Source of the DNA: an uncultured Christensenellaceae bacterium
Lineage (GTDB): Bacteria; Bacillota; Clostridia; Christensenellales; UBA3700
Assembly (NCBI GenBank): GCA_944381355.1
Contig: CALWKV010000052.1
Span: 1 to 63,960, forward strand
Reading direction: 5' to 3'
Length of the DNA: 63,960 nucleotides
Positions 11,809 to 33,148 of this stretch are shown here, in pieces. The position numbers were made by a program, and so were the translations under genes. The notes under the pieces are model-generated. The model was given only the letters and a program-made list of their open reading frames with translations. It had not been told where the DNA came from and searched no databases. Position 1 is the first letter of the stretch. Each line of letters starts with the position of its first letter.

Positions 11809-11815
11809 AAACCGT

Positions 11816-11840: not shown

Positions 11841-11846
11841 ATCGGT

Positions 11847-12080: not shown

Positions 12081-12205
12081 ATTTACATATTATGCCCGAC
12101 GGAGCGCCGACGATACGCAAAATCCCACATTGACTGTATTTTGTTTTTTCCCGGATACGTCACGTTTTTTTTCTTTGCGTCATATATGATACGAGGAGGC
12201 GAAAC

Positions 12206-12490: not shown

Positions 12491-12503
12491 AAGCGCATAA
12501 CAA

Positions 12504-13646: not shown

Positions 13647-13725
13647 TTTTCACCTCACGTTTAGTCGGATAAGACAATATATTGTATTAGGAGCGGACTA
13701 CATTTTATTACAAAGGAGAAGCCTT

Positions 13726-13959: not shown

Positions 13960-14164
13960 GGGAAACCTTGCCCTTTCTGTCGTTAAAAAATGCGTGTTTA
14001 TAAGAAGCGACCGCGTAGAGAAAAGCGCTTTGCCGCGATACGGGGCAAAATTGAAGTGTATAAAGCGTATAAGTTGTATAATTATTGTAAATTTCTTTAC
14101 AATGCGCGCATAGTTATGTATAATAAAATAAAAAATTATCAAGGAGACCCTTTTGAGGGTAAAT

Positions 14165-15433: not shown

Positions 15434-15458
15434 TTTTTTTCCGAAAACGGAGGATAAA

Positions 15459-18400
15459 ATGTATAAACAAGTAAGCTCGAGTCTCGATTTCTGTTCGAGA
15501 GAAAAAGAGGTGCTCGAATTCTGGAAGGAAAATTCAATCTTTGAAAAGAGCGTGAAACAAAGCGAGGGCAGACCCTCGTTCTCGTTCTACGACGGACCCC
15601 CGACCGCCAACGGCAAGCCGCACATCGGTCACATTCTGACGCGCGTCATGAAAGACATCATACCGCGTTACAAGACGATGAAGGGCTATCATGTGCTGCG
15701 CAAGGCGGGCTGGGATACTCACGGCCTCCCCGTAGAGCTTGAGGTCGAAAAGACCCTCAACATGGACGGCAAACAGGATATCGAAAAGTACGGTATCGAG
15801 CCTTTTATTCAGAAGTGCAAAGAGAGCGTCTGGAAGTACAAGGGCGAGTGGGAGAGAATGTCGGAGCGCGTCGGTTACTGGGTGGATATGGAGCACCCGT
15901 ACATCACGTATGACGACAACTATATCGAGTCCGAGTGGTGGGCGCTCAAGAAGATCGCAGAAGCGGGGCTGCTTTACAAGGGACACAAAATCGTTCCTTA
16001 CTGCCCGCGTTGCGGCACGGCGCTTTCTTCTCACGAAGTGGCGCAGGGCTACAAGACCGTAAAGGAAAAATCCATTTTCGTAAAGTTCAAGATCAAGAAC
16101 TCCGACGGCTACTTCCTCGCCTGGACTACGACTCCCTGGACGCTCCCGTCTAACGTCGCGCTGTGCATGAACCCCGACGAGGATTATGTGAAGATCAAGG
16201 CGGAGGACGGAGAGATCTACGTGCTCGCGGCGGCTCTCGCTCCCTCTCTGTTCGAGAACTACGAAGTGCTTGAGACTAAGAAGGGCAAAGAATACGAAAG
16301 GGAGGAGTATATCCCGCTTTTCGATTTCTACAAGGGCGACAAAAAGGCGTTTTACGTGACCTGCGACAGTTACGTCACTCTGACGGACGGCAGCGGCGTG
16401 GTTCACATCGCGCCCGCATTCGGCGAGGACGACGCGGGCGTCGGCAGAAATTACGGTCTGCCTTTCGTGCAGATGGTCGACGACAGAGGCAAGTTCACCA
16501 AGGAGACGGGTGACCTCGAAGGCATTTTCGTCAAGGACGGAGACAAACTCGTCATCGACAAACTCAAGGAAAAAGGTCTCTTGTTCAAAGAGCTTATGTT
16601 CGAGCACAGCTATCCCTATTGCTGGAGATGCGATACGCCGCTCCTGTACTACGCGAGAAGCAGCTGGTTCATCAAGATGACCGAAGTCAGAGACAGACTT
16701 CTCAAAAACAACGCTACGATCAACTGGATGCCCCCGACTATCGGTACGGGCAGAATGGGCAACTTCCTCGAGAACGTCATCGACTGGGGCGTTTCCAGAG
16801 AGAGATACTGGGGCACTCCGCTCCCGATCTGGATATGTCAGGACTGCGGCGAAATGCACGTCGTAGGAAGCAAGGCGGAACTCAAAGAGCTTGCCGGCAT
16901 CGAAGGGGATATCGAACTGCATAAACCCTACCTCGACCCGATCACGTTCAAGTGCCCGAAATGCGGCGGCACGATGAAGCGTACGCCCGAGGTCATGGAC
17001 TGCTGGTACGACAGCGGCAGCATGCCGTTCGCGCAGTGGCATTATCCGTTCGAGAACAAGGAGATATTCGACAGCCAGTTCCCCGCAGACTTCATATCCG
17101 AGGCGGTCGACCAGACAAGAGGCTGGTTCTATACGCTGCTTGCGGTCTCCACGCTCATATTCGACCGCGCGCCGTTCAAAAACTGCATAGTCCTCGGACA
17201 CGTCAATGACAAGAACGGTATAAAGATGTCAAAACACAAGGGCAACGTCGTCGATCCGTGGAGCGTGCTCGACAAACAGGGCGCAGACGCGGTCAGATGG
17301 TATTTCTACAGTTCTTCGGCGCCGTGGCTCCCGTCGCGTTTCAGCGCGGAGAACGTCTCCGAGGCTCAGCGCAAGTTCATGGGCACGCTGTGGAACACAT
17401 ATTCTTTCTTCGTCCTCTACGCGGAGATAGACAAGTACGACCCGCGCAAGTACGATCTTAAGAAATGCAAACTTTCGCAGATCGACAGATGGGCGCTTTC
17501 CAACCTCAATACGCTCGTCGCGACCGTGGACGAAAACCTCGAAAAGTACAAGATCACAGAGTCCGCAAGGGCGATCGAGGAGTTTACCGACAACCTGTCC
17601 AACTGGTACGTAAGAAGAAGCCGCGAGCGCTTCTGGGGCAGCGATATGACCGATGACAAGGCGGCGGCTTATACGACGCTTTACCACATACTCGTCACGA
17701 TGAGTAAGGTGCTGGCGCCGTTTGTGCCCTTTATGTCCGAGTGCATTTATCAGAACCTCGTGCGCACGTTCTACGAGGACGCGCCGGAAAGCGTACACCT
17801 TTGTACTTTCCCCGAGGCGGACAAGAGCGCTATCGACAAAGAACTCGAATCCGACATGGATATCGTTCTGCATGCCGTTGCGCTGGGCAGGGCGTGCCGC
17901 AATAAGGTCAATATCAAGAACAGACAGCCGCTTTCCGGACTGTTCGTTCTCACCGAAAAACAGCTTGCGGACAAGTCTGTAGTGTCCTATATCGCCGACG
18001 AGATCAACGTCAAGGAAGTCGTGCCGGAAAAGGACAGCAGTAAGTTTATCACCTACGAACTCAAGCCGCAGCTCAAGACCCTCGGTCCCAAGTACGGCAA
18101 GCACCTGAATGCGATCAGACAGTATCTCGCGTCTTGCGACAACGCAGTCGAGATCGTAGACCGCGTAAGAGCAGGCAAGATATATTCGTTCGAGGCAGAC
18201 GGCACGACGATCGAACTTGCCGAAGAAGATTTGCTGATCAACCCCGTCAACAAGAGCGGTTACAGCGTCGAGAGCGAGAACGGCATGACCGTCGTCATAG
18301 ACACGACCCTGACCCCCGCGCTTGTGGACGAAGGTATCGCGAGAGAACTCGTCTCCAAACTTCAGACGATGAGAAAAGAGGCGGGCTTTGAAGTGACCGA

Positions 18401-20218: not shown

Positions 20219-20240
20219 CAGTCGACATATCAGAGCAATG

Positions 20241-20268
20241 TCTCTCGCAAGCGCGGGAGATTTTTTTT
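20241..20268 (+). terminator. intrinsic terminator after the rluA-family gene
   Basis: TCTCTCGC-AAGC-GCGGGAGA followed by T8. Confidence 0.65.
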
Positions 20269-20304
20269 GCTTTTTAAAGAAGCGTCGAGGCTCCGAGGCG
20301 ATTC

Positions 20305-20385
20305 GCAAGTCGTCAGACGAAGGAAAGCAGAGAATATTCAGATTGCAAGTCGTCAGACGAAGGGAATCATGGAATATTCTGAATT
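20305..20385. repeat. two copies of a 40-bp unit, each with palindromes TCGTC-A-GACGA and GAATATTC
   Basis: The 19-bp perfect direct repeat GCAAGTCGTCAGACGAAGG occurs at 20305 and 20345. Confidence 0.8.
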
Positions 20386-20418
20386 TATATATAATGTCAA
20401 AATGTGGTTGGCTTTATA

Positions 20419-20610
20419 TCTTTTGACCTGCAACATACGGTTGACATAAGAGATTTTGCCCGTAACAATTTATTGTTTTCAGGTCTTTTGACTGAAAGAT
20501 ATGATTGACTTCAGGTCTTTTGACTGAAAGATATGATTGACTTCAGGTATATTGACTTAAATATATAATTGACTTCAGGTCTTTTGACCTAAAACAGGTC
20601 TTTTGACCTG
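20419..20610. repeat. iteron-like array: three tandem 32-bp units plus two 19-bp partial units and a flanking copy, 10 co-oriented TTGAC motifs
   Basis: CAGGTCTTTTGACTGAAAGATATGATTGACTT occurs at 20480 and 20512 (identical), with a diverged copy at 20544. CAGGTCTTTTGACC occurs at 20576 and 20595. TCTTTTGACCTG also occurs at 20419. Confidence 0.85.
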
Positions 20611-20714
20611 ACGACAAAAGTTCGCTTAGGCACTTTTATGGATTTTCGCGAAATGAATGGTGAGGGTGATTTTACAATGTTTTTTGGTAAAATCCACAGG
20701 TATGCAGATATGTT

Positions 20715-20923
20715 ACGTCGGCAAGCATATAAATGCGACGTCGGCAAGCAGATAAAAGAGATGACAGGCAAACAGATAAATGTTGCTTAGGCAAGCAGAT
20801 AAAAGAGATGACAGGCAAAACATATAAATGTTACGTCGACAAGCATATAAATGCGACATCGGCAAACAGATAAATGTTACTTAGGCAAGCAGATAAAAGA
20901 GATGACAGGCAAACATATATATC
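20715..20923. repeat. iteron-like array: nine tandem 23-25-bp units with core GGCAA(G/A)CA(G/T)ATAAA
   Basis: The units abut with no unique spacers. The two-unit block GGCAAGCAGATAAAAGAGATGACAGGCAAAC recurs three times. Confidence 0.85.
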
Positions 20924-21464
20924 ATTAATTATTATTTCAATATATAAAACAATCAATTGATATTATATTACGCGCGCGCAAAATTTAGCTGCGCGTTTCT
21001 TGGTATTGACTGCGTTTAAAGAAAGGGAAGGCGAGGATTGCACGGTCTGAACTTCTGTCATTGCAACGCGCTTTGCAATACCGCGATCGTGACATGCCGT
21101 CGAGAAGTATAACAATTTTACGGCATGACATTTTTGATAAAAACGGAGTAGACCTCGCTATATGCGGCAGAGCGCATTTTTACGTTGTCTGCAGTTTGCC
21201 GACAGGGTTAAGATCTTGTTGTTTTTTCTCGGACGTAGCGTTTCTTGCGGACTGATCGGTTTTTTCGCTGACGTTCAGATTATGTTTTCTCAAACTTTTT
21301 CAAAGATGACATAGCAATCCGTAACAATAGATTGCAGGGCATAAAATTCAACAGACTTTACATTATGTTCACATTTTTTCAAGCCGATTTTTAAAAAATC
21401 GTCAATTTTTCTACTTAAATATGACAAAATATGGCAACTTCTAAAAGTTACCATATAGAAAAGA

Positions 21465-21478
21465 CGAACAAATGTTCG
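21465..21478. promoter_or_regulatory. candidate LexA (Cheo/SOS) box CGAACAAATGTTCG
   Basis: Perfect palindrome matching the Firmicute LexA consensus CGAAC-RNRY-GTTCG. It ends 65 nt upstream of the first cassette gene. Confidence 0.5.
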
Positions 21479-21497
21479 CAAAAGTTGGCAGACTAAA

Positions 21498-21526
21498 TTG
21501 ATTTACAACTGTTGCGGATATATACT
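21498..21526 (+). promoter_or_regulatory. candidate promoter TTGATT-17 nt-TATACT for the cassette
   Basis: Hexamers with 17-nt spacing, 17 nt upstream of the ATG at 21544. The RBS GGAGGAAAG follows. Confidence 0.4.
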
Positions 21527-21543
21527 GTGGACGGAGGAAAGAT

Positions 21544-22119
21544 ATGGAAAAAACGATTGATTGGGTAACGGCGCTTACTGCAGCTTACAGACATTTGCCG
21601 CGTGCTGTGGGGGCTTGCAAAAAGACTTCGTCCGCACTTGCGGTTTCGGGTTTTTACAATACCGACACTATGGCTCTCATAGAAAAGATGATTGATTGCA
21701 ACGTCCGCGCCGAGAGTTATATCAACGCCAAGGTGCTTATCGACAGAACGATTGAGAAATTGCCGCTCAAGCACGCCAGAATACTTTATTTAAGGGCGCG
21801 TTACGGCGTAAGCATCGAGGTCATCGCGGAGAAACTGGGATATTCCAAGAGGAGCGCGTTCCGCTGGTACGCCGAGGCGCTGAAAAAGGCGGCGAGCGTG
21901 CTCAAGGCGCAAGGCTATGACAGCGACTGGTTTGCCGAGAGGTATGCAAAAGACGTGCTGATAGGGGATTACTATTCTCAGATAAGAAAAGGTGCGGACG
22001 TGTTCGGCCGCACCGTAAAGATCCGTGACAGCAAAAAGCTGAGGATAAAACTGGAGGACGCCGTTGCCGCAGGGCTTCTGCTGGGCGAGCGAGCGTATTC
22101 GATAGGTTGTCTTAATTAA
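21544..22119 (+). CDS. sigma-70 region-4-like HTH protein (phage late activator ArpU/RinA-like, or HTH-type small terminase)
   Basis: 191 aa. HARILYLRARYGVSIEVIAEKLGYSKRSAFRWYAEALKKAA is a region-4 type HTH. It is the first gene of the cassette, upstream of terL. Confidence 0.55.
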   Translation: MEKTIDWVTALTAAYRHLPRAVGACKKTSSALAVSGFYNTDTMALIEKMIDCNVRAESYINAKVLIDRTIEKLPLKHARILYLRARYGVSIEVIAEKLGYSKRSAFRWYAEALKKAASVLKAQGYDSDWFAERYAKDVLIGDYYSQIRKGADVFGRTVKIRDSKKLRIKLEDAVAAGLLLGERAYSIGCLN

Positions 22120-22937
22120 CGACCGTAACCGTCATAGCGGTCTCTTTCTGCATTTTCGCGGTTTTCCATCTCGTAGCGGTTTTTCGCGTTCTTGGTTGGA
22201 CGGAAGATGAGGAATATGACCAGCACGCACATTATGCATATGACCGCTATCATCACGTTGCGGATTACGTTGTTGCCGCCTACGTCCGCGTTGCCGTCAC
22301 CGGGGGTGGAGATGACGCCTTCGTTTTCGGCGTTGTTTTTCTCTACCGTGATCTGGTGGAGAGGTATTGAGGACATCGTGAAAGCGGCTTTATTGGTGGC
22401 GCTCGCTTCTACGAGAAGCACTTTATAATAGGGTGCGCTGGCGATCAATGCGAAATATATCTTGTTGTTGCTCGCGCGGTAAACGCCGAGAACAGAGTCT
22501 ATCTGAGTTACGAAATCGCCTGTTGCCGCGTGCGTCTCGAGATTGCCCGGGGCATAGAACAGAGTGGTCTGCTTGTTGTTGAGCGTGAGGTCGATGATCT
22601 TGTACCCCGCGGTAGAGTCGGTGACGTCGTCATTGGATACGGACGCTTTTGCGTTCAGGTCAGAAGTCAACACGGCAAGGGTTATCGAATAATCCGCATT
22701 GCCGTTGTAGGAGATGAGGGTGTACTCTCCGCTGGTCGCCAGAGTGCGGAAATAATAGCTTTGCGGGATTATAAACGCAGGCTGATACGCGCCTCCGTCG
22801 GGAGACGTGTAGACTGTAATGTTTTCGTTGGCTATGTAATAGGTCTGACCGCCTGATTGCGTATCGGCAAAAACGGTGCCTGTCGCAAGCAGAAACACGG
22901 CGGCGATAAGTATGCAGACCGTAAGGATTTTTTTCAT
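22116..22937 (-). CDS. secreted, C-terminally membrane-anchored protein of unknown function (273 aa)
   Basis: GAGGAG RBS. Signal peptide MKKILTVCILIAAVFLLATGTVFA/DT. C-terminal TM helix VMIAVICIMCVLVIFLIF followed by a charged tail. This is the real part of the 747-aa minus-strand ORF. Confidence 0.65.
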   Translation of the reverse strand: MKKILTVCILIAAVFLLATGTVFADTQSGGQTYYIANENITVYTSPDGGAYQPAFIIPQSYYFRTLATSGEYTLISYNGNADYSITLAVLTSDLNAKASVSNDDVTDSTAGYKIIDLTLNNKQTTLFYAPGNLETHAATGDFVTQIDSVLGVYRASNNKIYFALIASAPYYKVLLVEASATNKAAFTMSSIPLHQITVEKNNAENEGVISTPGDGNADVGGNNVIRNVMIAVICIMCVLVIFLIFRPTKNAKNRYEMENRENAERDRYDGYGR

Positions 22938-23060
22938 CTTCAACTCCTCGGTACAGACGCATCGCGCCTGCAAGATACTATTATTATACACTATGACGTG
23001 TATATCGCAACAATTAAAAATAGTTTTTATTGTAAAAAATACGGCGTAAATCGGAGAAAT

Positions 23061-24488
23061 ATGACTGAAAAAGAGATACTTGCAAAGATTCTGGCGATAG
23101 AGCAGGAGCAGAAACGCCGCTTCGACAACAGCAGGCTCGCCCGATACAATACGGGAGAAAAGGTGCACGAAAAGCAGATGGCTTTTCACAAATGTCTCAA
23201 GCGTAACCGCTGGGTTTTCGGCGGCAACAGAAGCGGCAAAACTGAGTGCGGCGCAGTCGAGGCGATATGGTGGGCGAGAGGCATACACCCTTACCGCAAG
23301 AACAGAGGAGCGGTCGAAGGCTGGGTCGTGTCGCTGTCGTACGAGGTGCAGAGAGACGTCGCGCAGAGCAAATTCCTGTCCTATCTCAATCCCGATTGGG
23401 TAGAGGATATCGTTATGTCGTCGGGAAGAAAAGAAAGCGCGGAGTACGGCGTCATCGACTACATTCTGATAAAAAACGTGTCGGGCGGAATATCTAAAAT
23501 TTCTTTCAAAAGCTGCGATCAGGGCAGAGAGAAATTTCAGGGTACTTCGCTCGATTTCGTATGGTTCGACGAGGAGCCGCCTCTCGATATATATCAGGAG
23601 TGCAGGATGCGCGTGCTCGACCGCAAAGGAGAGGTATGGGGCACTATGACTCCGCTCAAAGGTCTGACGTGGGTCTACGATCTGATATACCTCAACAGCG
23701 GCGGCGACGACGAGATATGGTGCACGCATATGGAATGGGCTGACAATCCTTTTCTTGACGAGGACGAAGTAGCCGCGCTGACGGCGAGTATGGACGAGGA
23801 GACGCTCAATTCTAGACGATACGGCAAGTTCAGCGCCGCGGAAGGCATCGTATACAAAGAGTTCGACCCGTCGAGGCACGTGCTTGAATTGCCCTTCGAC
23901 GTGCCTGCCGAGTGGCAGGATACGATAAGCATCGACCCCGGACTCAACAATCCGCTGGCGTGCTTGTTTTTCGCGACCGACTACGACGGCGTGGTCTACG
24001 TGGTCGGCGAGTGGTACGAGGCGGGCAGAGATATAGATTATCACGCGAAAAAGATATTCGAGACGGCAGACGCGCTGGGCTGGCACAGAGACGGCAAAGG
24101 GCGGCTTGAAGCGCTCATCGACAGCGCGGCGACTCAAAAGACGCTCGCGAGCGCAAAAAGCGTCGCGGACTTGTTTTTCGAGCGGAATATCGCAGTCAAT
24201 ACGCGCGTCGACAAAGATCTGTTCAGCGGCATAGCGAGAGTCAAATCCTATTTCGCAACAGACAGGATCAGGATATTCCCGTGTTGCGTCAATCTGATAC
24301 GGGAACTGAAATCTTACTGGTGGGGTAGCGGGGACAGACCCGTCAAAAAGGACGATCACGCGCTTGACGCGCTGAGATATTACATTATGACAAAGCCCGA
24401 GCCGACGAAGCCGCCAAGACGCGAAAAGTCGGTGATACAGAAAGACAAGGACAGGCTTATCAACAAACTCAGACGGAGCAAATTATGA
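23061..24488 (+). CDS. terL: phage terminase large subunit
   Basis: P-loop FGGNRSGKTE, Walker B LDFVWFDEEP, and C-terminal nuclease motif DDHALDALRYY. GGAGA RBS at the ATG at 23061. Confidence 0.85.
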   Translation: MTEKEILAKILAIEQEQKRRFDNSRLARYNTGEKVHEKQMAFHKCLKRNRWVFGGNRSGKTECGAVEAIWWARGIHPYRKNRGAVEGWVVSLSYEVQRDVAQSKFLSYLNPDWVEDIVMSSGRKESAEYGVIDYILIKNVSGGISKISFKSCDQGREKFQGTSLDFVWFDEEPPLDIYQECRMRVLDRKGEVWGTMTPLKGLTWVYDLIYLNSGGDDEIWCTHMEWADNPFLDEDEVAALTASMDEETLNSRRYGKFSAAEGIVYKEFDPSRHVLELPFDVPAEWQDTISIDPGLNNPLACLFFATDYDGVVYVVGEWYEAGRDIDYHAKKIFETADALGWHRDGKGRLEALIDSAATQKTLASAKSVADLFFERNIAVNTRVDKDLFSGIARVKSYFATDRIRIFPCCVNLIRELKSYWWGSGDRPVKKDDHALDALRYYIMTKPEPTKPPRREKSVIQKDKDRLINKLRRSKL

Positions 24489-24790
24489 CGAAGAAAAAGA
24501 TAGACAGCATTCTGATGAAGAAGGCGACGGGGTACTTTGTTGAAGAAAAGGTGGAAGAATTCGACCGCGAAAACGAAGTCACCAAAAGAAAGGTCTCCAA
24601 AAAATATATTCCGCCCGATACCACGGCTATAAAGGCTGTGATAGAGAGATCGGCAGAAAACCCGCTCGCGGGATATACGGACGAACAACTGGAGCAACTC
24701 AAACACAGGCTTCTAACAGAGCTTGAAAAAATAAATTCACAATCCAAGGAGGCAAAAAATGCAGGTCGCAAAACTAAGCGTAAAGACTAA
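24485..24790 (+). CDS. hypothetical phage protein (101 aa) with a small-terminase-like KxxIPPDTTAI segment
   Basis: ATGA coupling to the terL stop. The charged protein GYFVEEKVEEFD...KKYIPPDTTAIKAVIE resembles the central segment of some TerS proteins (recollection only, not searched). Confidence 0.45.
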   Translation: MTKKKIDSILMKKATGYFVEEKVEEFDRENEVTKRKVSKKYIPPDTTAIKAVIERSAENPLAGYTDEQLEQLKHRLLTELEKINSQSKEAKNAGRKTKRKD

Positions 24791-24977
24791 ATGCGAAATG
24801 CCGCTTTGCAAAAACAATGCGGCGTACCAGTTCTGCGCAGACAACGGAGACAAACTCAATTCTCTCAATCTGTGCGAGGACTGCGTGAAAGAATTGTATA
24901 GACAAATCGGCAAACTTCTGACGCCCAAAAGTCCTAAAAACATACTCTCGGGCAAGAGGGGAAAGGAGAGCGTATGA
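24759..24977 (+). CDS. small Cys-rich (zinc-ribbon-like) phage protein, 72 aa
   Basis: AAGGAGG RBS 7 nt upstream. Cys pattern C-x4-C ... C-x13-C-x2-C. Its stop overlaps the portal start (ATGA). Confidence 0.5.
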   Translation: MQVAKLSVKTKCEMPLCKNNAAYQFCADNGDKLNSLNLCEDCVKELYRQIGKLLTPKSPKNILSGKRGKESV

Positions 24978-26863
24978 GAGAAAAAAAGATATTTGCCGAG
25001 GACATCGTAGCCGACGTCAGAAAGGATTACGAAAGGCGCAGAGAGGACAGAAAACCGCTTGAATTGCAATGGCAACTCAACATGAATTTCGTGAACGGCA
25101 ATCAATATATGCAGATTATGCCGACGGGCGAAGTCGAGGAGTTCGGCAAACAGTATTTCTGGCAGGAAAGAGAGGTCTACAACCACATAGCTTCCGTACT
25201 CGAGACGAGAATGTCAAAGCTCGTCAGAGTCAATACGGGAGTGACGGTCAGACCCTTTTCAAACGACGAGACGGACATTCAGTCCGCTAAGCTGTCTACC
25301 GCTCTCATCAGCGCGGTGGCGGAACAGAACGATCTGCCTTCGCTGATCAACGACGCGGTTTCCTGGAGCGAAGTCACGGGGTCTTGTTTTTTCAAGGTCA
25401 CCTGGGATAAGGATCTGGGCGAAAAAATAGGTACGGATAAAGAAAAAAATCCTGTCCGTGTAGGAGAAGCACGCATTACCGTGGTGCCGCCGTTTGAAAT
25501 TTTCCCCGACAACGTATGCGCCGGATCGCTTGAAGAATGCGCGAGCATCATTCATGCGAAAGCCTATCCCGTATCCGAGATAGAGGAGCGTTGGGGAGTC
25601 AAGGTCGAGGGAGAAGAAGTCAACGTGTTCACGCTGGACAACGCCAGCATTGCGGGAGGTCTGGGGTACAACGCGAGCGTCGGCAACGTGATCGCGTCCA
25701 AGGTCGACGGATACGCGATAGTCATAGAAAGGTATACGCGCCCGACAAAGGATAAACCCGACGGCGAACTCGTCATTACGGCGGGAGACAAACTTCTGTA
25801 TTACGGCGGTCTGCCTTACGTGACCGACGTGCAGGGACGCAAAGGCTTTCCTTTTTCACAGACCAACTGTATCAAGAAAGTGGGCAGCTTTTTCGGCACT
25901 TCGGTCGTCGAAAGAATGATACCGCTTCAGAGAAGCTACAACGCGGTCAAGAACAGAAAACACGAATATCTCAACCGCATTTCAATGGGCATACTCGCCG
26001 TCGAGGACGGCAGCGTCGATATGGACAATCTGGAAGAAGAAGGACTCTCGCCCGGCAAAGTGCTTATATACAGGCAAGGCTCCAACATCCCGAGATTTAT
26101 AGAGACGGGCAGCGTGCCCGCGGACTTCACCTATGAAGAAGAAAGACTGCTGTCGGAATTCGTTACGGTCAGCGGCGTCAGCGAACTCAGCAAATATTCG
26201 CAGACTTACGGCAATATGTCGGGCAAGGCGATTTCGCTTCTCGTCAATCAGGACGATACAAGAATGTCGCTTTCCACTACTTCGCTGAGACTGTGCATAA
26301 AGAGGGTGTGCAGAATGTTGCTCTATCTCTACAAACAGTTTGCGACTCAGAAGCGACTCAAGCGCATTTCCGGCGAAAACGGAGAACCCGAGCTGACTTA
26401 TTTCACCGGCAACGACCTGCAATGCGAGGATCTCGTTTTCGACACGCAGGACGACGTGGGAGAGACGATCACAGAAAGACGGAACATGGTCGTCGAACTT
26501 ATACGTATGGGAGTGCTGACCGAGGCGGACGGCACGATGAGTCCGCGCACCAAGATCAAAGTGCTCGAAATGCTGGGAATAGGCAACTGGGATAGCGCGA
26601 AAGACGTAAGCGAAACGCAGAGAAAACGCGCCATGAGAGAAAACCTCGCTATCGGCAAAGAACAGTTGGCGGCATGCCCTTACGACGATCACGACGTACA
26701 CGTGGAGGAGCATATCAAATGCCTGCTCGAGGACAGCGTGCTCAAGAATAAAAAACTTTACGAAGCGATGGACGCGCACATCAAGGAACATCAGATGTTT
26801 GCGCTCGCCGATTCGGCAGAGGCGCAGGCTTTTGCCGGTCAGACCCAAACTCAAAATGACTAA
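24974..26863 (+). CDS. phage portal protein
   Basis: 629 aa, directly after the terminase genes. The N-terminal LELQWQLNMNFVNGNQY-type segment is typical of portal families. Confidence 0.75.
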   Translation: MREKKIFAEDIVADVRKDYERRREDRKPLELQWQLNMNFVNGNQYMQIMPTGEVEEFGKQYFWQEREVYNHIASVLETRMSKLVRVNTGVTVRPFSNDETDIQSAKLSTALISAVAEQNDLPSLINDAVSWSEVTGSCFFKVTWDKDLGEKIGTDKEKNPVRVGEARITVVPPFEIFPDNVCAGSLEECASIIHAKAYPVSEIEERWGVKVEGEEVNVFTLDNASIAGGLGYNASVGNVIASKVDGYAIVIERYTRPTKDKPDGELVITAGDKLLYYGGLPYVTDVQGRKGFPFSQTNCIKKVGSFFGTSVVERMIPLQRSYNAVKNRKHEYLNRISMGILAVEDGSVDMDNLEEEGLSPGKVLIYRQGSNIPRFIETGSVPADFTYEEERLLSEFVTVSGVSELSKYSQTYGNMSGKAISLLVNQDDTRMSLSTTSLRLCIKRVCRMLLYLYKQFATQKRLKRISGENGEPELTYFTGNDLQCEDLVFDTQDDVGETITERRNMVVELIRMGVLTEADGTMSPRTKIKVLEMLGIGNWDSAKDVSETQRKRAMRENLAIGKEQLAACPYDDHDVHVEEHIKCLLEDSVLKNKKLYEAMDAHIKEHQMFALADSAEAQAFAGQTQTQND

Positions 26864-26880
26864 ACCGAAAGGAGACATAT

Positions 26881-27588
26881 ATGGAAGAAGTGCAGAAACA
26901 AACGGAAGATCTTTCCCCCGAAGCGCACGTAGATGAGGCTGCGGATAAGGAAAGGACCGCCTTTTGCAACAAGTTCGCCACGGCAGACGAACTTGAGAAG
27001 GCTTACGACAGCCTGCAAAGGGAATTTACGAAAAAATGTCAGGTAAATTCCCGACTCAGTCGCGAACTCGAGGAACTCAGAAACGCGAAAGTGACTACGG
27101 ACGGAGAGCCGCTGACGGCGCGGCCTGAGGGGCGTGGAAATGAAACGCCGACGGCTTTGAACGGCGTTGAAGCGACAACTCCCGTCTACGAGTCGCCCGA
27201 CTGGGAAAGCAGGGTCGGAGAGTTTATGAAGAAGTATCCTCAAGCGGCGCGCTACACGCAGAGTATCGCGAAAACGCTTGCGGGCGATCCCTCTCTGGCA
27301 ATGAGAGAGGACTGCCTTGAGCGCGCGTACTTCGACGTGCTGGTCAAAGCCGACAGAACGCCCGAAGAAGTGGTTGCTGACGACGATTTTCTCGAAAAAT
27401 ACGTTCTCGACAACCCTCGGGTGAAGGACAGGATAATAGAGAAGTATCTCCTTGAAAATCTGGACGCAGAGATTCCCCGCACTATTGCCGGGAGCGGAAG
27501 AACTCACGTCACCCCGCCGTCGCGACCCAAGAGCATACGCGAGGCGGGCGGTATCGTAAAAAATATGCTCGCAAACAGGAGGATTTAA
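26881..27588 (+). CDS. putative scaffolding protein
   Basis: 235 aa, acidic and helical, sitting between the portal and capsid genes. The call rests on position and composition only. Confidence 0.45.
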   Translation: MEEVQKQTEDLSPEAHVDEAADKERTAFCNKFATADELEKAYDSLQREFTKKCQVNSRLSRELEELRNAKVTTDGEPLTARPEGRGNETPTALNGVEATTPVYESPDWESRVGEFMKKYPQAARYTQSIAKTLAGDPSLAMREDCLERAYFDVLVKADRTPEEVVADDDFLEKYVLDNPRVKDRIIEKYLLENLDAEIPRTIAGSGRTHVTPPSRPKSIREAGGIVKNMLANRRI

Positions 27589-27591
27589 AAT

Positions 27592-28761
27592 ATGGTAACA
27601 ATGGAAACAGCCGAAAAGGCGCTCAAAACCGTATATCTCGGAGTTGTCGCCAACCAGCTTAACGTAGGCGTGAACCCGCTTCTCGCCAAGATTAAACAGA
27701 CCAGTTCCGACGTATGGGGCAAAGAGATCGTCAAACTCGTGCCCTACGGTCTCAACGGCGGTATCGGAGCGGGTACGGAAACGGGCGACCTTCCGCAGGC
27801 GGCGGCAAATAATTATGACCGCTTCAGGCTCGAGCTTAAGAACTTGTACGGCACGATAGAACTGTCCGACAAGGCTATCAGAGCGTCGCAGAACAGCGTG
27901 GGCGCGTTCGTCAACCTGCTCGACGCCGAAATGGAAGGATTGCTCAAAGCGTCCAAGTTCAACCTCGGCAGAATGCTTTACGGCGACGGCTCGGGCAAGA
28001 TCGCAACGGTTACGGCGCAGGGCAGTTCCAACAATCAGATCGTTGTGGGAAGCGTCAAGAATCTGATGGAGGGTATGGTCGTCGACGTGTACGACGGCGA
28101 AACAGACACCGTACGCAGCGGTCTCAAGGGAGTGAGGATCACATCAGTCGACAGAGCGACCAAGACCGTCACTTTCGGCAATTCGGCAGGCGGAACGGTC
28201 GAGAGCGGCGACTACGTTACGGTGCAAGGCTCCAAGGACAACGAACTCACAGGTCTCGGCGCGATATTCTCTGATAAAGACCTCTACGGTCTCGCGAGAA
28301 GCGGCAGAGCCTGGATGAAGAGCGGCAGCAAAGATAGCGTAGGAGCGATTTCTTTTGTCGGCATGCAGAGCGCGATCGACGAGGTCGAGGAAGTGTCGGG
28401 CGGCGCGATCGATATGATCGTCTGTGCGTACGACGTCAGAAGATTCTATCTCGACAACTGCATGAGTGCGAGAATGAACCTCGACTACATGAATCTGGAC
28501 GGCGGTTACAAAGCGGTGACCTTCAACGGCATTCCCGTCGTTGCGGACAAGTTCGTCGAGGACGGCACGATGTATATGCTCAATACGGGCGATTTCAAGC
28601 TGCATCAGCTGTGCGACTGGAGATGGCTCGAAGGCGACGGAGGCAGGGTCATCAAGCAGAAAGCGGGTAGCGCAACCTATTCCGCAACGCTCGTCAAGTA
28701 TGCCGATCTTATCTGCGACAAACCGATAGGTCAGTATAAGCTCTCGGGCATCAACGCGTGA
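27592..28761 (+). CDS. putative major capsid protein
   Basis: 389 aa, in the position after portal and scaffold. AGGAGG RBS. Gly-rich N-terminal loop and overall composition resemble HK97-fold capsids. Not verified by search. Confidence 0.65.
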   Translation: MVTMETAEKALKTVYLGVVANQLNVGVNPLLAKIKQTSSDVWGKEIVKLVPYGLNGGIGAGTETGDLPQAAANNYDRFRLELKNLYGTIELSDKAIRASQNSVGAFVNLLDAEMEGLLKASKFNLGRMLYGDGSGKIATVTAQGSSNNQIVVGSVKNLMEGMVVDVYDGETDTVRSGLKGVRITSVDRATKTVTFGNSAGGTVESGDYVTVQGSKDNELTGLGAIFSDKDLYGLARSGRAWMKSGSKDSVGAISFVGMQSAIDEVEEVSGGAIDMIVCAYDVRRFYLDNCMSARMNLDYMNLDGGYKAVTFNGIPVVADKFVEDGTMYMLNTGDFKLHQLCDWRWLEGDGGRVIKQKAGSATYSATLVKYADLICDKPIGQYKLSGINA

Positions 28762-29075
28762 AAAACAAACGCCTGATCCCTGTCGAAAACGATTTATTCT
28801 ACGTTGCGGACAGAATAAAAAGCATAGACGACAAATACAAAATCTACTACAACGGGGAAAGTAGGAAATTCGAGGTCCGCAACGCGGAGGACGACAGTCT
28901 GCAGGTCGTATTGCCTTACGGGCAGCTCGACAGCCGCGCGGTGGACTACGTGCGCAAGACGAGGATAGAGAGGATAGACGCTCTGCTCGAGGAGATAGAG
29001 CGCGCCAACGCCGAGGCGGAAAAAGCTGCGGCGAGACTGGCTAAGGAAAAGGCGTTTGAAAATATACGCATATAG
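28758..29075 (+). CDS. hypothetical phage protein (105 aa)
   Basis: The GTG start overlaps the capsid stop. C-terminal helical EEIERANAEAEKAAARLAKEK segment. Confidence 0.4.
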   Translation: MKNKRLIPVENDLFYVADRIKSIDDKYKIYYNGESRKFEVRNAEDDSLQVVLPYGQLDSRAVDYVRKTRIERIDALLEEIERANAEAEKAAARLAKEKAFENIRI

Positions 29076-29117
29076 ACGGGGGCGGATTTGTTCCGCCCCT
29101 TTGTCAAAGGAGGCAAA

Positions 29118-29660
29118 ATGAAACTTGAAGAGGTAATCAATACGGCGCTTGCGTATCTGGACGAAGGGGATCACGACGCAGGCAGAGACAACGTTGAGGA
29201 CGACAAGATCAGACTCCTCGTAAAATGCGCAAACATTATGCTGACCGAGATCGCGCAGGAATATCTGCCTCTGGAGGACGAGTGCGAAGTGACGGCAAAG
29301 GACGGAAGATTTTCTTATGAAGATATCCCGAGGCGCGTGTCAAGGATCATATCTGTCAAGGACGAAAAGGGCACCTCTGTATCATTTCGTCAACGCTCTT
29401 TTTCTTGTGCGGTAGGCAAGAACGGCAGACTTAAAGTGGTCTACCGCTATCTGCCTGCCGCAGTTGCTCTCGGAGACGACTGCGACGTGCATCCTGCCGT
29501 CAGCGAAAAGACGCTTGCCCTCGGAACGTGCGCGGAATACTGTATGATAAACGGCATGTACGAGCAGAGCGAAGGGTTTGCGGAACGATTCCGACAGGAT
29601 ATCCGTACCGCGGTACGCCCTGTATCCGTCATCACCCTCAAAGGCAGGGGGTGGTATTGA
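29118..29660 (+). CDS. hypothetical virion protein (180 aa), candidate head-tail adaptor
   Basis: AAAGGAGG RBS. Sits just downstream of the capsid gene. Function inferred from position only. Confidence 0.45.
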   Translation: MKLEEVINTALAYLDEGDHDAGRDNVEDDKIRLLVKCANIMLTEIAQEYLPLEDECEVTAKDGRFSYEDIPRRVSRIISVKDEKGTSVSFRQRSFSCAVGKNGRLKVVYRYLPAAVALGDDCDVHPAVSEKTLALGTCAEYCMINGMYEQSEGFAERFRQDIRTAVRPVSVITLKGRGWY

Positions 29661-31120
29661 TGTTTTACGAAAAGAAGTTTTCGGTAGACAAACCCACAAG
29701 GATGAGATACAGATTTTCTTCGTTCAAGGGCTTCGACGTGAAATCGTCGCCCTCAACGCTTCCTTGCGATTACTGCGAGGACGTCTACAACTTCGGATTT
29801 GACAACGGCAATCTTACTGCAGGGGTCGGGCTTTCTGCATTTGAATACAAGTGTGAAAACGGGGAGACATTCGCGCTGCCGCCGATACCCGAGGGCTACG
29901 GCGACGCAAGAATGTTCTGCGGCAAACTCAGCGACGAAAACGGTCCTTACGAATGCGTGATACTTTCTGCGCCCGACAAACTCACGCATATAAAACTCGC
30001 GGCGGGCGAGAGCTGGGCGCCGGATACGGCGACGGACAGGCAATTCACCTCGGCGATAGGATACCTCGACGGAGACAACGACCTGATGCTCCTCGGTGGC
30101 GGCGGCGAGGGACTTTACGTTATGAGCGGCGAAGGCGGTCAGTACGCCGCGGACGCGCTTGCGATAACAGACCTCTGCACTCACTACGAGAGAGTTTATG
30201 CGGTAGTTGACGGCGTGCGCACGAGTATATGGTTTTCTGACGCGTTCGATCCTTACAACTGGAACGTGTCTCTCGACGAGGGCGGTTATATCTCACTCGA
30301 CGGGTCGCTCGGCGAAGTGCTGAGAGTGCTCAGCTTCGAGGACAATATTTACGTGTTCTGCGAATACGGCATTTACCGCCTGACCGCGTACGCCGATCAG
30401 CTCCAGTTCAGCCTGAGGCGCGTGCATTGCGACTGCGGACGCATTTTCAAGGATACGATCACGATATGCGGCGCAGTGATAATCTTCGTGACGAGCGACG
30501 GCGTTTTCGCTATGGACGGCTACGACGTGACCCGTGTCACAGACAGGCTGGACGACCTCGTCGACGGCGCGGAAAAACTTCGTGCACTCTACTGCGACGG
30601 CAGATATTATCTGATTTTCGACAAGGAACACGAGGACGCGCTTTACGATTATACCGTCGCCGACGGCGGTCCCAACGTCACCGTCATCGTGGATACGGAG
30701 AAAGGTACGGTTGAGATATACCGCGGCGCAAAAATGCACGATATGTGCGTGCTCGCCGGAAGAACTCAGCATTGCGTGCTCGCGTTGTCTGAACTGTCTG
30801 ACAGGATCGCGGTAGTAGACGACGGCGGAGTTTTTTTCAACGAGCCGCCTTTCAGATACTGGATTATAAAAGACGTCGATTTCAACGAACACGTAAACAA
30901 AAAGTATGTTCTCGGAGTGGATTATTGCACGGACGTGCCTTTTACGCTGGGAGTCGTCGCAGACGGCAAAGCGCGTGAATTCAGGCTCGATCCGTCGAGG
31001 AAGTACGTGCCGATAGGCGTAAACGGGATATGCTTCGACTTTTATATCAAGTGTTCGGAGCGGAGCGTCAGGATAAAGCCGTTCGGCATCACGATCGACT
31101 TTCTGAGGAGGAATAAATGA
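29660..31120 (+). CDS. hypothetical virion protein (486 aa), repetitive beta-rich, candidate nozzle/tail-knob
   Basis: ATG overlaps the upstream stop. Recurrent short G/Y/D-rich beta-strand-like segments. No recognised family. Confidence 0.5.
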   Translation: MFYEKKFSVDKPTRMRYRFSSFKGFDVKSSPSTLPCDYCEDVYNFGFDNGNLTAGVGLSAFEYKCENGETFALPPIPEGYGDARMFCGKLSDENGPYECVILSAPDKLTHIKLAAGESWAPDTATDRQFTSAIGYLDGDNDLMLLGGGGEGLYVMSGEGGQYAADALAITDLCTHYERVYAVVDGVRTSIWFSDAFDPYNWNVSLDEGGYISLDGSLGEVLRVLSFEDNIYVFCEYGIYRLTAYADQLQFSLRRVHCDCGRIFKDTITICGAVIIFVTSDGVFAMDGYDVTRVTDRLDDLVDGAEKLRALYCDGRYYLIFDKEHEDALYDYTVADGGPNVTVIVDTEKGTVEIYRGAKMHDMCVLAGRTQHCVLALSELSDRIAVVDDGGVFFNEPPFRYWIIKDVDFNEHVNKKYVLGVDYCTDVPFTLGVVADGKAREFRLDPSRKYVPIGVNGICFDFYIKCSERSVRIKPFGITIDFLRRNK

Positions 31121-31473
31121 AGTTATCGAGAATAGAAAGAACCGCAAGAGAGGGGCTTGAGATCGCCGAGTACGTGTATAACAACAGAGACGTGGAGTTC
31201 GTTGAGATACTTCCCGCGCTGCACGCGGGCAGTCCGCACACTCTGACTTTCTGGTGTACGGGCACTATCGACGTGGAACTCGCGTTCTTCGGCGAAGCGT
31301 GCGACGTGGAAGTCGCTCTCGACGATACTACGAAGTATACCGCGACGGGCAGGATATGGAGACTCACTCTCGAACAACTCGGCAGATCCAGGCATACGCT
31401 GACCTTTACCGCGGCGGGCGACGCGACGGAGATAAGACTTTGCGTGACCGCCAAAGGAGGGCTAAGGATATGA
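31117..31473 (+). CDS. hypothetical phage protein (118 aa)
   Basis: GAGGAGG RBS and ATGA overlap with the upstream stop. Confidence 0.5.
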   Translation: MKLSRIERTAREGLEIAEYVYNNRDVEFVEILPALHAGSPHTLTFWCTGTIDVELAFFGEACDVEVALDDTTKYTATGRIWRLTLEQLGRSRHTLTFTAAGDATEIRLCVTAKGGLRI

Positions 31474-31549
31474 TATACGGCAAGAAATTCCGCGCGCTCA
31501 GAAAGAGATTCGCGCGGTACAACTATTACGTTTTAAAAAGGAGAATATT

Positions 31550-32533
31550 ATGGCAATAGCAGGAAAACTCATCACTCGGACCACTTACGGAGGCAACAGC
31601 GGAAGTACGAAAAAGATAACTACCGAAGAGCAGCTTATCAATACCTTGAAACAGATGCACAGCGACTACCGACAGAAAGAGTTGGAAGAACGCAAAGAGG
31701 AAGCGTCGGCGGCGCTTCCCGAAGAACCCGATTATGAGTTCAAAAGTTACGAGGGAGAAAACGAAGAAGAAATAAAAAACAGGGTAGAGAGCGAGTACGG
31801 AGCTAAACTCGAAAGCGAAAAGGCTCTCGAGACCGAAAAGACAAAGACCAAGACCGATGAGCTTGCAGGCAAGGTCGAGACGACTTATCAGGATTTCGGC
31901 AAGACAGAGGAGGAGATCCTCGCTTCGCTCGAAAAGAGCAAGAAGCAGAACGAGAACAAGATGATCGAGAGCGGTCTGTCGCGTTCTTCGATAAAGGAGC
32001 TTATCGGTGAAAGCGCACAGCAACAGGCGGATATGATGATCGCAGAAGCCAAGGCTGACGCAGACAACGTAGCGAAGAAATATCAGACTCAGATAGACGG
32101 ACTGAACAGAGAATTGCAGGCGGCGATCGACGATCTCAATGCGGAATACGTCATCAAAATATCGACCGAAATAGAAGAACTCATCGCAAAAAGAGACAAG
32201 GAGATTAAGGCGATTCAGGAATATAACAATAAGATTGAACAGCAGATCGCCGAATATCAGCTCGCGCGCGAAAAAGCCATTCAGGAAGACGTTGCGACGC
32301 GTATCGAAGCCGACTATCAGCAGGCAGAGTACGAGAAAAAATACGGTTATGTCGGAGAAAAGGCGGACAACTACGCGCAGAGACTCAATATCGCGATAGA
32401 TTTTTACGACGGCTTCGATCCCGAGACCGCAAAGAGCATGGTGCAGCAGAATCAGTATCTCAAGACCTATCTCGGTTATGAATACACAAATCTTCTCGCG
32501 AGATACGTCAAAGCCGCAAAGGACGCAAAGTAA
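31550..32533 (+). CDS. coiled-coil phage protein (327 aa)
   Basis: AAGGAGA RBS. Long E/K/Q/A-rich heptad-like stretches. Confidence 0.6.
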   Translation: MAIAGKLITRTTYGGNSGSTKKITTEEQLINTLKQMHSDYRQKELEERKEEASAALPEEPDYEFKSYEGENEEEIKNRVESEYGAKLESEKALETEKTKTKTDELAGKVETTYQDFGKTEEEILASLEKSKKQNENKMIESGLSRSSIKELIGESAQQQADMMIAEAKADADNVAKKYQTQIDGLNRELQAAIDDLNAEYVIKISTEIEELIAKRDKEIKAIQEYNNKIEQQIAEYQLAREKAIQEDVATRIEADYQQAEYEKKYGYVGEKADNYAQRLNIAIDFYDGFDPETAKSMVQQNQYLKTYLGYEYTNLLARYVKAAKDAK

Positions 32534-32548
32534 CGGGAGGTGAGAACT

Positions 32549-32812
32549 GTGTGGGAGAGCGTGATAGAGACCGTTGTCGCCAACGGCGCATGGGCAGTAC
32601 TGTTCTGTCTGCTTCTCGTCTACGAGCTGAAAGACAGTCGCAAAAGAGAGCAGAAGTATCAGGACACGATAACCTCGCTGGGAGACAGTCTGTCGTGCGT
32701 AAAAGCGGTGGCAAAGGACGTGGAAGAGATAAAATACGACGTCAGATGCGGATTCGGTCTGCAGGAATTGCAGAGGGAAGCGACGGACGTAGCGTCGGAA
32801 GAAGTGGCGTAA
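32549..32812 (+). CDS. BhlA/UviB family holin-like protein
   Basis: N-terminal TM segment followed by a charged stretch, NGAWAVLFCLLLVYELKDSRKREQKYQDTI, resembles BhlA/UviB. The GTG at 32549 lies 7 nt after GGGAGGTG and is preferred to 32540. Confidence 0.55.
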   Translation: MWESVIETVVANGAWAVLFCLLLVYELKDSRKREQKYQDTITSLGDSLSCVKAVAKDVEEIKYDVRCGFGLQELQREATDVASEEVA

Positions 32813-32823
32813 CGGAGGATAAT

Positions 32824-33102
32824 ATGAAGGAAAAGATCAAATCTTACGATTTCTGGATGGCGGTTGCAAGTGCATTGTTCGTTGTTCTGCAGGCTGTCGG
32901 ATTTACGACCGAGATACCCTACCTCAGAGAGATCACGACGGCGTTTCTCGGATTGCTTGCAGTAAGCGGTTTTATCGTGAAACCGCCTTCGTCGCAGGTT
33001 CAGGAAGACGTATCTTCGGATGAGCAGAATGCGGCAAGCGGAAGCGAGCAAAACGCTGAGTTGACTGAAATTATTGATGAAATAATTGATAATACTAAAT
33101 AA
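32824..33102 (+). CDS. putative holin / small two-TM membrane protein (92 aa)
   Basis: GGAGG RBS. Two hydrophobic helices followed by an acidic C-terminal tail. Last gene of the cassette. Confidence 0.45.
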   Translation: MKEKIKSYDFWMAVASALFVVLQAVGFTTEIPYLREITTAFLGLLAVSGFIVKPPSSQVQEDVSSDEQNAASGSEQNAELTEIIDEIIDNTK

Positions 33103-33121
33103 TAACTATTATTCACAATTA

Positions 33122-33148
33122 ACGACGGCATCAAGCCGTCGTTTTTTT
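33122..33148 (+). terminator. intrinsic terminator ending the cassette (abuts the murG stop)
   Basis: ACGACGGC-ATCAA-GCCGTCGT followed by T7. Confidence 0.7.

Follow-up and report, generated by a model that had tools for sequence, protein, structure and literature searches.

A candidate gene transfer agent-like viriform of podovirus descent in the chromosomes of Christensenellales

What is a set of phage head, packaging and lysis genes doing among the housekeeping genes of an uncultured Christensenellaceae bacterium? The question is raised by contig CALWKV010000052.1 (assembly GCA_944381355.1), which we analysed at its full length of 63,960 nucleotides (hereafter the 64 kb window, one whole NCBI contig). 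A block of ~11.7 kb in this window, referred to below as the cassette, has 14 co-oriented open reading frames (ORFs) on the plus strand and one conserved gene on the minus strand, 15 genes in all. They encode a large terminase subunit (TerL), a fragment resembling a small terminase subunit (TerS), a portal of the P22/SU10 type, a protein in the scaffold position, a podovirus major capsid protein (MCP), an adaptor, a nozzle, a DUF7934 protein and two holins, among others. A first-pass annotation, made by a model from the letters of the sequence, had suggested a domesticated system of the gene transfer agent (GTA) type rather than an ordinary prophage, or else a new kind of capsid-encoding satellite. 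At the genomic level, the former idea is borne out by conservation, genomic context, co-divergence with GyrB and purifying selection. We assign a probability of roughly 0.7 to the reading that the cassette is a domesticated, vertically inherited, podovirus-derived GTA-like viriform of Christensenellales under SOS control.

Conservation, descent and selection of the cassette

To place the cassette among its relatives, we scanned one genome per GTDB species. Encoded relatives were found in at least 561 species-representative genomes, and the best 80 loci, mostly metagenome-assembled genomes labelled Christensenellales or Clostridia, were fetched and compared. Presence counts given below were obtained with profile hidden Markov models, the denominator being the loci whose contig extends far enough. 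Gene order and strand were conserved in 79 of the 80 loci, across which the MCP was at least 59% identical; more than 6,000 MCP relatives were found in total, the best 120 of them all at least 66% identical. Three contigs of the same species from independent samples had an identical architecture. Many loci also share the flanks of the window, with rluA upstream and murG-abhydrolase-gyrB downstream; others have gyrBA and murC as neighbours, or nifSU upstream and RNase J downstream. The examined orthologous loci contained no cassette-associated integrase, and a synteny comparison, which had been suggested along with the first annotation, showed that the close relatives examined carry the same short cassette at this site and no full-length prophage. 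Among the 2.9 million contigs of IMG/VR, we found 13 loci, all with the same cassette, and both of those with annotated flanks lie in a host context; an autonomous phage ancestor in IMG/VR was rejected on this basis. The record labels of some loci (L044, L050, L052, L053, L057, L059 and L071) read Acidaminococcus, Bacteroidaceae, Bacteroides or Corallococcus despite a Clostridia-type cassette, and NCBI puts 'Candidatus Fimimonas' in Myxococcaceae; such discordant taxon labels are probably binning or naming errors.

The cassette is vertically inherited with its host. In 14 genomes, the pairwise distances of the MCP followed those of GyrB with a Mantel r of 0.991 and a slope of 0.86. The corresponding coefficients were 0.955 for TerL and 0.973 for the portal, and TerL, the portal, DUF7934, the nozzle and the product of the minus-strand gene (c02) together spanned r values of 0.86 to 0.97. 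This co-divergence with GyrB extends down to ~60% identity. All cassette genes are also under purifying selection: measured against the closest species, dN/dS was 0.03-0.20 in all 15 genes at dS values of 0.1-1.7. The values for TerL, the portal and the MCP (0.036, 0.033 and 0.042, respectively) were comparable to those of rluA (0.043) and the hydrolase gene, and gyrB gave 0.019. There was no sign of relaxed selection, in agreement with the earlier impression that the block is maintained and not decayed.

In G+C content, G+C content at third codon positions and codon usage, the cassette equals its flanking genes, as had been judged by eye. The relative synonymous codon usage of the cassette and the host correlated with r = 0.976; when the host gene set was split in two, its halves gave 0.967. 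Synteny, co-divergence, selection and host-like codon usage, taken together, refute the readings of the cassette as a recent remnant, as a satellite or as an ordinary prophage.

The surroundings are those of a chromosome. Housekeeping genes border the cassette for at least 20 kb on either side, and the remaining annotated genes of the window, including rluA, murG, gyrBA, polA, coaE, ruvAB, queA, tgt, yajC and secD, are all of this kind. No integrase, repressor, replication, fibre or endolysin gene is present among the annotated genes of the 64 kb window, as the first-pass annotation had stated for the block and its surroundings, and the rest of the window has no second operon with fibres, a receptor-binding protein or an endolysin. 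We found no att-like or flanking direct repeats around the block, and neither tRNA genes nor matches to Rfam families in the window.

Genes of the cassette and their predicted products

The features of the cassette are as follows (window coordinates, strand, description).

21465..21478, no strand assigned: predicted LexA (Cheo/SOS) box CGAACAAATGTTCG, a perfect Firmicutes-type match ~20 nt upstream of the -35 element of the c01 promoter
21498..21526, plus: c01 promoter of the sigma-A type, TTGATT-17-TATACT (promoter scan), followed by the ribosome-binding site GGAGGA and the ATG at 21544
21544..22119, plus: c01, 191 aa, DNA-binding protein resembling sigma-70 region 4 and phage late activators (Pfam Sigma70_r4_2, E 7.9e-7)
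22116..22937, minus: c02, 273 aa, between the helix-turn-helix gene c01 and TerL (ORF and alignment A4)
22983..23010, minus: c02 promoter TTGCGA-16-TATAAT with a TG upstream of the -10 element (extended -10; promoter scan), back to back with the TerL upstream region
23061..24488, plus: TerL, 475 aa (Terminase_6N and Terminase_6C; phrog_2, E 5e-30)
24485..24790, plus: c04, TerS-like, 101 aa (phrog_309 'terminase small subunit')
24759..24977, plus: c05, Cys-rich, 72 aa (ORF; found by tblastn at the same position in 52 of 80 loci)
24974..26863, plus: portal of the P22/SU10 type, 629 aa (PF16510, P22_portal, E 5.8e-24; PF23899, SU10_portal, E 1.4e-14; phrog_156, E 4.8e-36)
26881..27588, plus: scaffold-position protein, 235 aa (location between portal and MCP, and conservation)
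27592..28761, plus: MCP, 389 aa (NF033394 capsid_maj_Podo, 252 bits; phrog_14242, E 8e-58)
28758..29075, plus: c09, 105 aa (ORF; found by tblastn in 74 of 80 loci)
29118..29660, plus: predicted head-to-tail adaptor, 180 aa, with the fold of T7 gp11 / tail tubular protein A (AlphaFold2 model, pLDDT 86.7, and Foldseek)
29660..31120, plus: predicted tail nozzle or tail hub, 486 aa, with the fold of P22 gp10 / T7 gp12 / SU10 nozzle (AlphaFold2 model, pLDDT 86.5, pTM 0.86)
31117..31473, plus: c12, 118 aa, in a variable slot between the nozzle and DUF7934
31550..32533, plus: DUF7934 helical / coiled-coil protein, 327 aa (PF25588, E 9e-39)
32540..32812, plus: BhlA/UviB-family holin-like protein (PF10960, E 1.1e-14; phrog_2429)
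32824..33102, plus: second holin, 92 aa (phrog_297 holin, E 3e-7; weak TIGR01598; weak Phage_holin_1 in the orthologue of L085)
33121..33143, plus: terminator-like hairpin closing the operon after the last holin and shared with the convergent murG (9-bp stem with 6 GC pairs, then a T run)

The plus-strand inventory of the first-pass annotation was right: all 14 ORFs lie where it had placed them, and its helix-turn-helix protein, TerL, portal, capsid-sized ORF, BhlA/UviB-like holin and second holin are backed by matches to Pfam, PHROGs and NCBIfam. What it had overlooked is the minus-strand gene c02. The start/stop overlaps that it had pointed out are real (24485/24488, 24759/24790, 24974/24977, 28758/28761, 29660 and 31117/31120), and nearly every start is preceded by a Shine-Dalgarno-like sequence. 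A terminator scan also found terminator-like hairpins around the block, one 3′ of rluA (20240-20261) and the other after the last holin. The gene order overall (TerL, portal, scaffold, MCP, adaptor, nozzle) mirrors that of P22, SU10 and the actinophage Shocker.

The translation of TerL has a Walker A motif (GNRSGKT), a Walker B motif (VWFDEE) and the nuclease Asp motifs. Its neighbour c04 was present in 76 of 76 loci, and 39 of 41 c04 orthologues matched phrog_309 (best E 3.2e-9). Since the match is confined to approximately positions 202-239 of the 319 profile positions, c04 would correspond to the C-terminal portion of a small terminase subunit only, without the DNA-binding part. Pfam searches with the 41 orthologues and a sequence-profile search of the PDB gave no match for c04. 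Family searches gave none for c05, for c09, which possibly serves in head completion or decoration, or for the 235-aa protein, whose position and conservation suggest that it is the scaffold.

The two ORFs downstream of c09 revealed their affiliation through structure models. The adaptor model matched, by Foldseek, KHP30 (7wmp_m), Pa223 (9nwi_A), N4 (9lc0_H), crAss001, SU10 (7z47_A), T7 (6r21_M) and KP32 TTPA (5mu4), with E values down to 1.9e-6 and TM-scores of 0.6-0.7; a PDB sequence-profile search was uninformative, and the fold was seen only via the structure model. The nozzle model matched Pa223 (9nwi_Y, E 8e-20, TM-score 0.71), VP1 (8zkk_O, TM-score 0.75) and P22 gp10 (8eap_D, E 3.5e-13), with further full-length matches to SU10 (7z4b), GP4, Sf6 gp8 and T7 gp12, and its sequence profile independently matched SU10 7z47_G (E 1.3e-5). 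The adaptor was present in 71 of 72 loci and the nozzle in 68 of 69. These models identify the predicted products of 29118-29660 and 29660-31120 as virion tail parts, which answers for 29118-31120 the structural question that had been raised for the region 29118-32533. The particle predicted from them is short-tailed; the earlier alternative of a short-tailed or a tailless particle thus stands in its first half and falls in its second.

Detection of c12, which lies between the nozzle and DUF7934, was limited to the 8 closest loci, with identities of 38-90%. Elsewhere the slot is occupied by an ORF of 109-143 aa (115-131 aa in most loci), by one of 344-372 aa, or by nothing, and c12 is a candidate receptor-binding protein or distal part of the tail. 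Between members of one genus (GyrB 94-95% identical; the window versus L004-L010), the adaptor, nozzle and c12 (29118-31473) were 38-78% identical, as compared with 90-95% for the MCP; this drop at a stable MCP indicates that the tail tip is evolving much faster or is exchanged, like receptor-specificity modules. At 31470-31559, gene callers put a 29-aa ORF of doubtful reality that bridges c12 and DUF7934, and L083 has a 42-aa ORF there. DUF7934 itself was present in 58 of 60 loci, the divergent L049 clade included, and a PDB sequence-profile search with it gave no match. Its position after the nozzle makes it a candidate for a particle-associated needle or plug, or for an internal protein. 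For the BhlA/UviB-type holin, gene callers prefer a start at 32549, a call that same-species contigs also have.

The minus-strand gene c02 was found in 66 of 67 loci, always upstream of TerL and always in this orientation, with dN/dS values of 0.07-0.23. Its product comprises a signal peptide, one or more SH3b-like ectodomains, a Pro-rich linker and a strongly conserved C-terminal transmembrane helix, and its profile matched the SH3b domain of a cell wall hydrolase (2kq8, E 5.6e-5). Its promoter motif, GTGTATAAT on the minus strand, is kept in many loci. We regard c02 as a predicted conserved surface protein, with a possible role as cognate receptor, in immunity or in the control of lysis.

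A predicted SOS switch and a proposed mechanism

How might such a cassette, which has no repressor gene, be controlled? A conserved LexA-type box lies upstream of c01. CGAACAAATGTTCG is the sole exact match to the box in the window, and we take it to be a LexA site from the established Firmicutes consensus, CGAACRNRYGTTYC. Of 34 loci, 26 had the core GAAC-N4-GTTC in the 250 nt before c01; with a background rate of 0.0098 per stretch of this length, ~0.3 occurrences would be expected overall. The GAAC and GTTC columns are without variation in alignment A10, and most of the 50 occurrences of GAAC-N4-GTTC in 1.38 Mb of loci are at the position upstream of c01. The relative position of the box is retained in the more distant loci, where it is recognised by its spacing to TerL (1.4-2.2 kb upstream) only. 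In the c01 promoter that follows, the TTG of the -35 element and the TATA.T of the -10 element are kept across 15 loci.

The product of c01 resembles regulators. Among 21 orthologues, 18 matched phrog_36 ('transcriptional regulator') and 10 matched phrog_248 ('transcriptional activator'), and in the PDB its profile matched region 4 of RpoE/SigF. We propose that c01 encodes a cassette-specific transcription activator, and we infer that LexA controls c01 and that c01 in turn may activate the operon from TerL to the holins. The idea that c01 might supply the DNA-binding half of a divided TerS was considered and rejected: the PHROG and PDB matches of c01 are all regulators or sigma factors, and one clade is without it. 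Overall, c01 was found in 48 of 63 loci. A scan for a c01-dependent promoter upstream of TerL gave clade-specific motifs only. The clade without c01 (L042-L053, L064, L071, L075-L080) has the motif TG(T/G)CA(T/C)AA-N6-TTG at 40-60 nt upstream of TerL, and this different motif suggests another regulator there.

Two further observations concern the region upstream of c01. A second conserved element, TAATATGACA-N5-GTGG (window 21417-21440, columns 18-35 of A10), is located ~30 nt upstream of the LexA box and may be another operator in the genus of the window. Farther upstream, the A+T-rich gap between rluA and the cassette has three neighbouring tandem-repeat arrays (20300-20920), with units of 40 nt (2 copies), 32 nt (4.4 copies, TTGAC-rich) and 23/47/94 nt (8 copies). 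In close relatives, rluA and c01 are 356 to 1491 bp apart. The nearest of them, L003, also has short stretches of the repeat region; in the others, upstream conservation is limited to the last ~190 bp before c01. With a variable gap length and parts common to L003 only, the arrays were rejected as part of the cassette.

We propose the following course of events. Host LexA would sit on the conserved SOS box before c01. De-repression of c01 would follow DNA damage or, in a small number of cells, stochastic firing of the SOS response, and the c01 product would switch on the TerL-to-holin operon. Capsids of the podovirus MCP would assemble with the aid of the scaffold on the P22/SU10-type portal, and TerL would carry out headful packaging with a TerS-like partner devoid of a DNA-binding domain. 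Because this partner has lost the domain, cellular DNA would be packaged without sequence preference. The adaptor and nozzle, with c12 and/or DUF7934, would close the portal as a short tail. The two holins would kill the producer cell and free the particles, the murein hydrolase and any fibres being encoded elsewhere. Random packaging of host DNA, particle release and delivery are what we infer.

Comparison with known systems and rival explanations

The closest described system is FpGTA of Faecalibacterium prausnitzii, which we compared by its published description. FpGTA is a podovirus-like, ten-gene chromosomal operon of ~10.5 kb, whose ~40 nm podovirus-like particles contain ~8.5-9 kb of host DNA; fibres, holin and endolysin are encoded in a second operon (Borodovich et al., Nat Commun 2026; PMC12946183). 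It is near-ubiquitous in its genus, and a search of all the authors' scaffolds found FpGTA I homologues in Faecalibacterium only (PMC12946183). A TerS without a DNA-binding domain, the same peculiarity as that of c04, was reported for RcGTA and FpGTA (PMC12946183). The same study found GTA-like even packaging in nanopore reads of virus-like particles (VLPs), with fragments of ~4.1 and 6.3 kb, for the Christensenellaceae genomes HGM11616 and QANA01, to which no gene cluster was assigned (PMC12946183). These fragments are shorter than the 11.7 kb cassette.

FpGTA and the cassette share a gut Clostridia host, a chromosomal operon, the absence of replication and integration genes, a TerS lacking the DNA-binding domain, TerL, the portal, a scaffold-position protein and an MCP. 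Both have a P22 gp10-like nozzle, that of FpGTA having been assigned via PDB 8eap, which is also a Foldseek match of the cassette nozzle, and both have a long helical last structural protein, which in FpGTA is annotated as 'TolA' and is abundant in the particles. They differ in several other respects. The FpGTA MCP (RCH50849.1) is named as an N4-gp56 family member, whereas that of the cassette belongs to NF033394 capsid_maj_Podo; it had no match to the N4 model at E<=0.01 in NCBIfam, and tblastn found no N4-like phage. The TerS-like gene is downstream of TerL in the cassette and upstream in FpGTA, and a Prp-like protein separates portal and MCP in FpGTA but not in the cassette. The main operon of the cassette ends with two holins, whereas the holin of FpGTA is in the second operon together with its endolysin and fibres. 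The LexA box, the activator gene c01 and the SH3b membrane gene c02 are features of the cassette that are not described for FpGTA. The cassette thus looks like a second, separately organised element of the podovirus type.

GTAs of the RcGTA type, known from Alphaproteobacteria such as Rhodobacter and Caulobacter, have a gene cluster that is vertically inherited and under purifying selection in a clade of order or class level. RcGTA has a TerS without a DNA-binding domain and accessory lysis and fibre genes at other loci, and its production is under host regulators. The cassette resembles it in the vertical inheritance of a selection-purified head, packaging and tail cluster and in the truncated TerS. 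RcGTA, however, is of siphovirus descent and includes a tape measure, an HK97-type protease and a long tail, whereas the cassette is derived from a podovirus. Production of RcGTA is governed by CtrA, GafA and quorum sensing instead of a direct LexA box before a sigma-like activator. Beyond shared folds there is no sequence relation between the two; Foldseek matches of the adaptor to the RcGTA neck were weak (E 0.05-0.2).

Several points weigh against the GTA-like reading. The cassette is known here from its genes alone, and its link to the published Christensenellaceae packaging is circumstantial. No endolysin, receptor-binding protein, fibre, cell-wall-degrading tail enzyme or ejection protein was seen in the 64 kb window, which leaves delivery into a Gram-positive recipient unexplained. 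The absence of c01 from 15 of the 63 loci, all of one clade, means that the regulatory model does not hold everywhere. Bacteriocin or tailocin release is just as typically marked by SOS control and a BhlA/UviB-type holin. Finally, the cassette is occasionally disrupted, by a prophage in TerL of L094 and by a defence island after the MCP of L022.

The disrupted loci have features of their own. In L094, from IMG/VR, the unrelated prophage end (1383-6515), which encodes two large serine recombinases and an Mtd_N protein of the tropism type found with diversity-generating retroelements, lies inside TerL and leaves only its 3′ part (6652-7248); this insertion may be a recombinase-controlled gene interruption. 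In L022, the island (11595-17650) encodes a WYL regulator, an NYN-domain protein and type I restriction-modification HsdM/HsdS directly after the MCP, and the distal cassette genes were not found within the locus. In L091 (2559-6886), TerL is reduced to an ORF of 176 aa, and two genes, one of them for a 732-aa GLUG-motif protein, are inserted between it and the TerS-like gene; L091 may be a decayed or remodelled copy.

The main rival holds that the cassette makes an SOS-induced killer or lysis particle, PBSX-like in function, which forms and may package DNA but whose selected role is to kill competitors or to lyse the producer for the release of DNA or goods. PBSX of Bacillus subtilis, a defective prophage of GTA-like character, is SOS-induced, is released with host lysis and packages pieces of host DNA shorter than its own locus. 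It has in common with the cassette a Gram-positive host and, as predicted for the cassette, the SOS link, and differs from it in being myovirus-like with a contractile tail, in killing rather than transferring, in having an Xre repressor and its own endolysin, and in being restricted to few Bacillus species. Its read length was 13.4 kb (PMC12946183). The LexA box before the activator gene fits such a role, as do the holin, whose family is annotated as bacteriocin-related, and the want of ejection proteins, a wall hydrolase and fibres in cis in the 64 kb window; the authors of FpGTA state the same caveat for their own system (PMC12946183). Yet TerL, the TerS-like gene and the portal, with dN/dS values of 0.03-0.07, rank with the most constrained genes and evolve as slowly as GyrB, which would be unexpected if DNA packaging were irrelevant, and tailocins have a contractile or puncturing apparatus to which a short podovirus tail offers no counterpart. 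We therefore regard a killer or lysis particle as unlikely, albeit the most serious of the alternatives.

If the cassette were a decaying or cryptic remnant, what is left of the late genes of a temperate podophage and without a selected function, this would account for components that are all phage-derived and for the few interrupted loci. The closest cultured relatives are indeed complete podophage-type genomes: Arthrobacter Jasmine, Microbacterium Shocker and Cellulosimicrobium DS1, considered here together with the podophages that have SU10/P22-type tail machines, are 42-47 kb in length and have MCP and portal proteins homologous to those of the cassette at 23-30% identity and the same gene order, with TerL, two small ORFs, portal, scaffold, MCP, small ORFs, an adaptor of ~200 aa and a nozzle of ~500 aa. 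The cassette has none of the replication genes, fibres, lysis enzymes and large internal or ejection proteins that these phages also carry. A more distant MCP relative lies on a 49.7 kb phage-like contig with an SU10_adaptor gene. Against a remnant stand the 15-gene cassette, intact and syntenic in all 80 species loci fetched out of at least 561, the low dN/dS of every gene, the co-divergence with GyrB, a codon usage ameliorated to that of the host and the lack of a full prophage at the site in close relatives. This rival is essentially refuted.

Another rival is a horizontally spreading, capsid-forming satellite (cf-PICI-like), with heads of its own and with fibres, tails and lysis enzymes supplied by a helper phage. 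Head and packaging genes without fibres or an endolysin would suit it, and the first-pass annotation had entertained it. The window has no integrase, excisionase, primase or other replication genes and no att repeats, and the cassette encodes its own adaptor and nozzle, keeps a fixed chromosomal context, descends vertically and is nearly absent from viral contigs (13 in 2.9 million). This idea is strongly disfavoured and we do not retain it. Least probable of all is a still autonomous temperate phage with its integration, replication, fibre and endolysin modules elsewhere in the genome, for which the visible genome of only 64 kb and the second, unlinked operon of FpGTA (PMC12946183) leave some room, and against which stand the housekeeping flanks on both sides, the vertical co-divergence with the host and the fact that an autonomous phage so divided cannot package itself as one unit.

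The reading as a domesticated GTA-like viriform is thus the one that we prefer, and it can be extended tentatively, at odds somewhat below even: an order-wide, independent domestication of a podovirus into an SOS-wired GTA, with a constitutively promoted c02, could be the source of the ~4-6 kb fragments of Christensenellaceae in VLPs from human faeces. GTAs with a known gene cluster are few, nearly all of siphovirus or myovirus derivation and mostly from Alphaproteobacteria; the podovirus-like FpGTA of a gut commensal was the first of its kind in 2026. What is notable about the cassette is its reach across at least 561 species representatives, a capsid protein that evolves about as slowly as GyrB, and a readable SOS box with a sigma-like activator. 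The GTA-like DNA packaging reported for Christensenellaceae, so far unexplained, gains in it a concrete candidate locus, and DUF7934 and the SH3b membrane protein stand out as uncharacterised yet conserved components of such particles. The cassette is also a warning for virome studies and prophage predictors, by which a host locus of this kind will be called 'viral'. If the extended reading is true, one of the most heritable lineages of gut bacteria would have, as a core trait, the altruistic donation of DNA in response to DNA damage.

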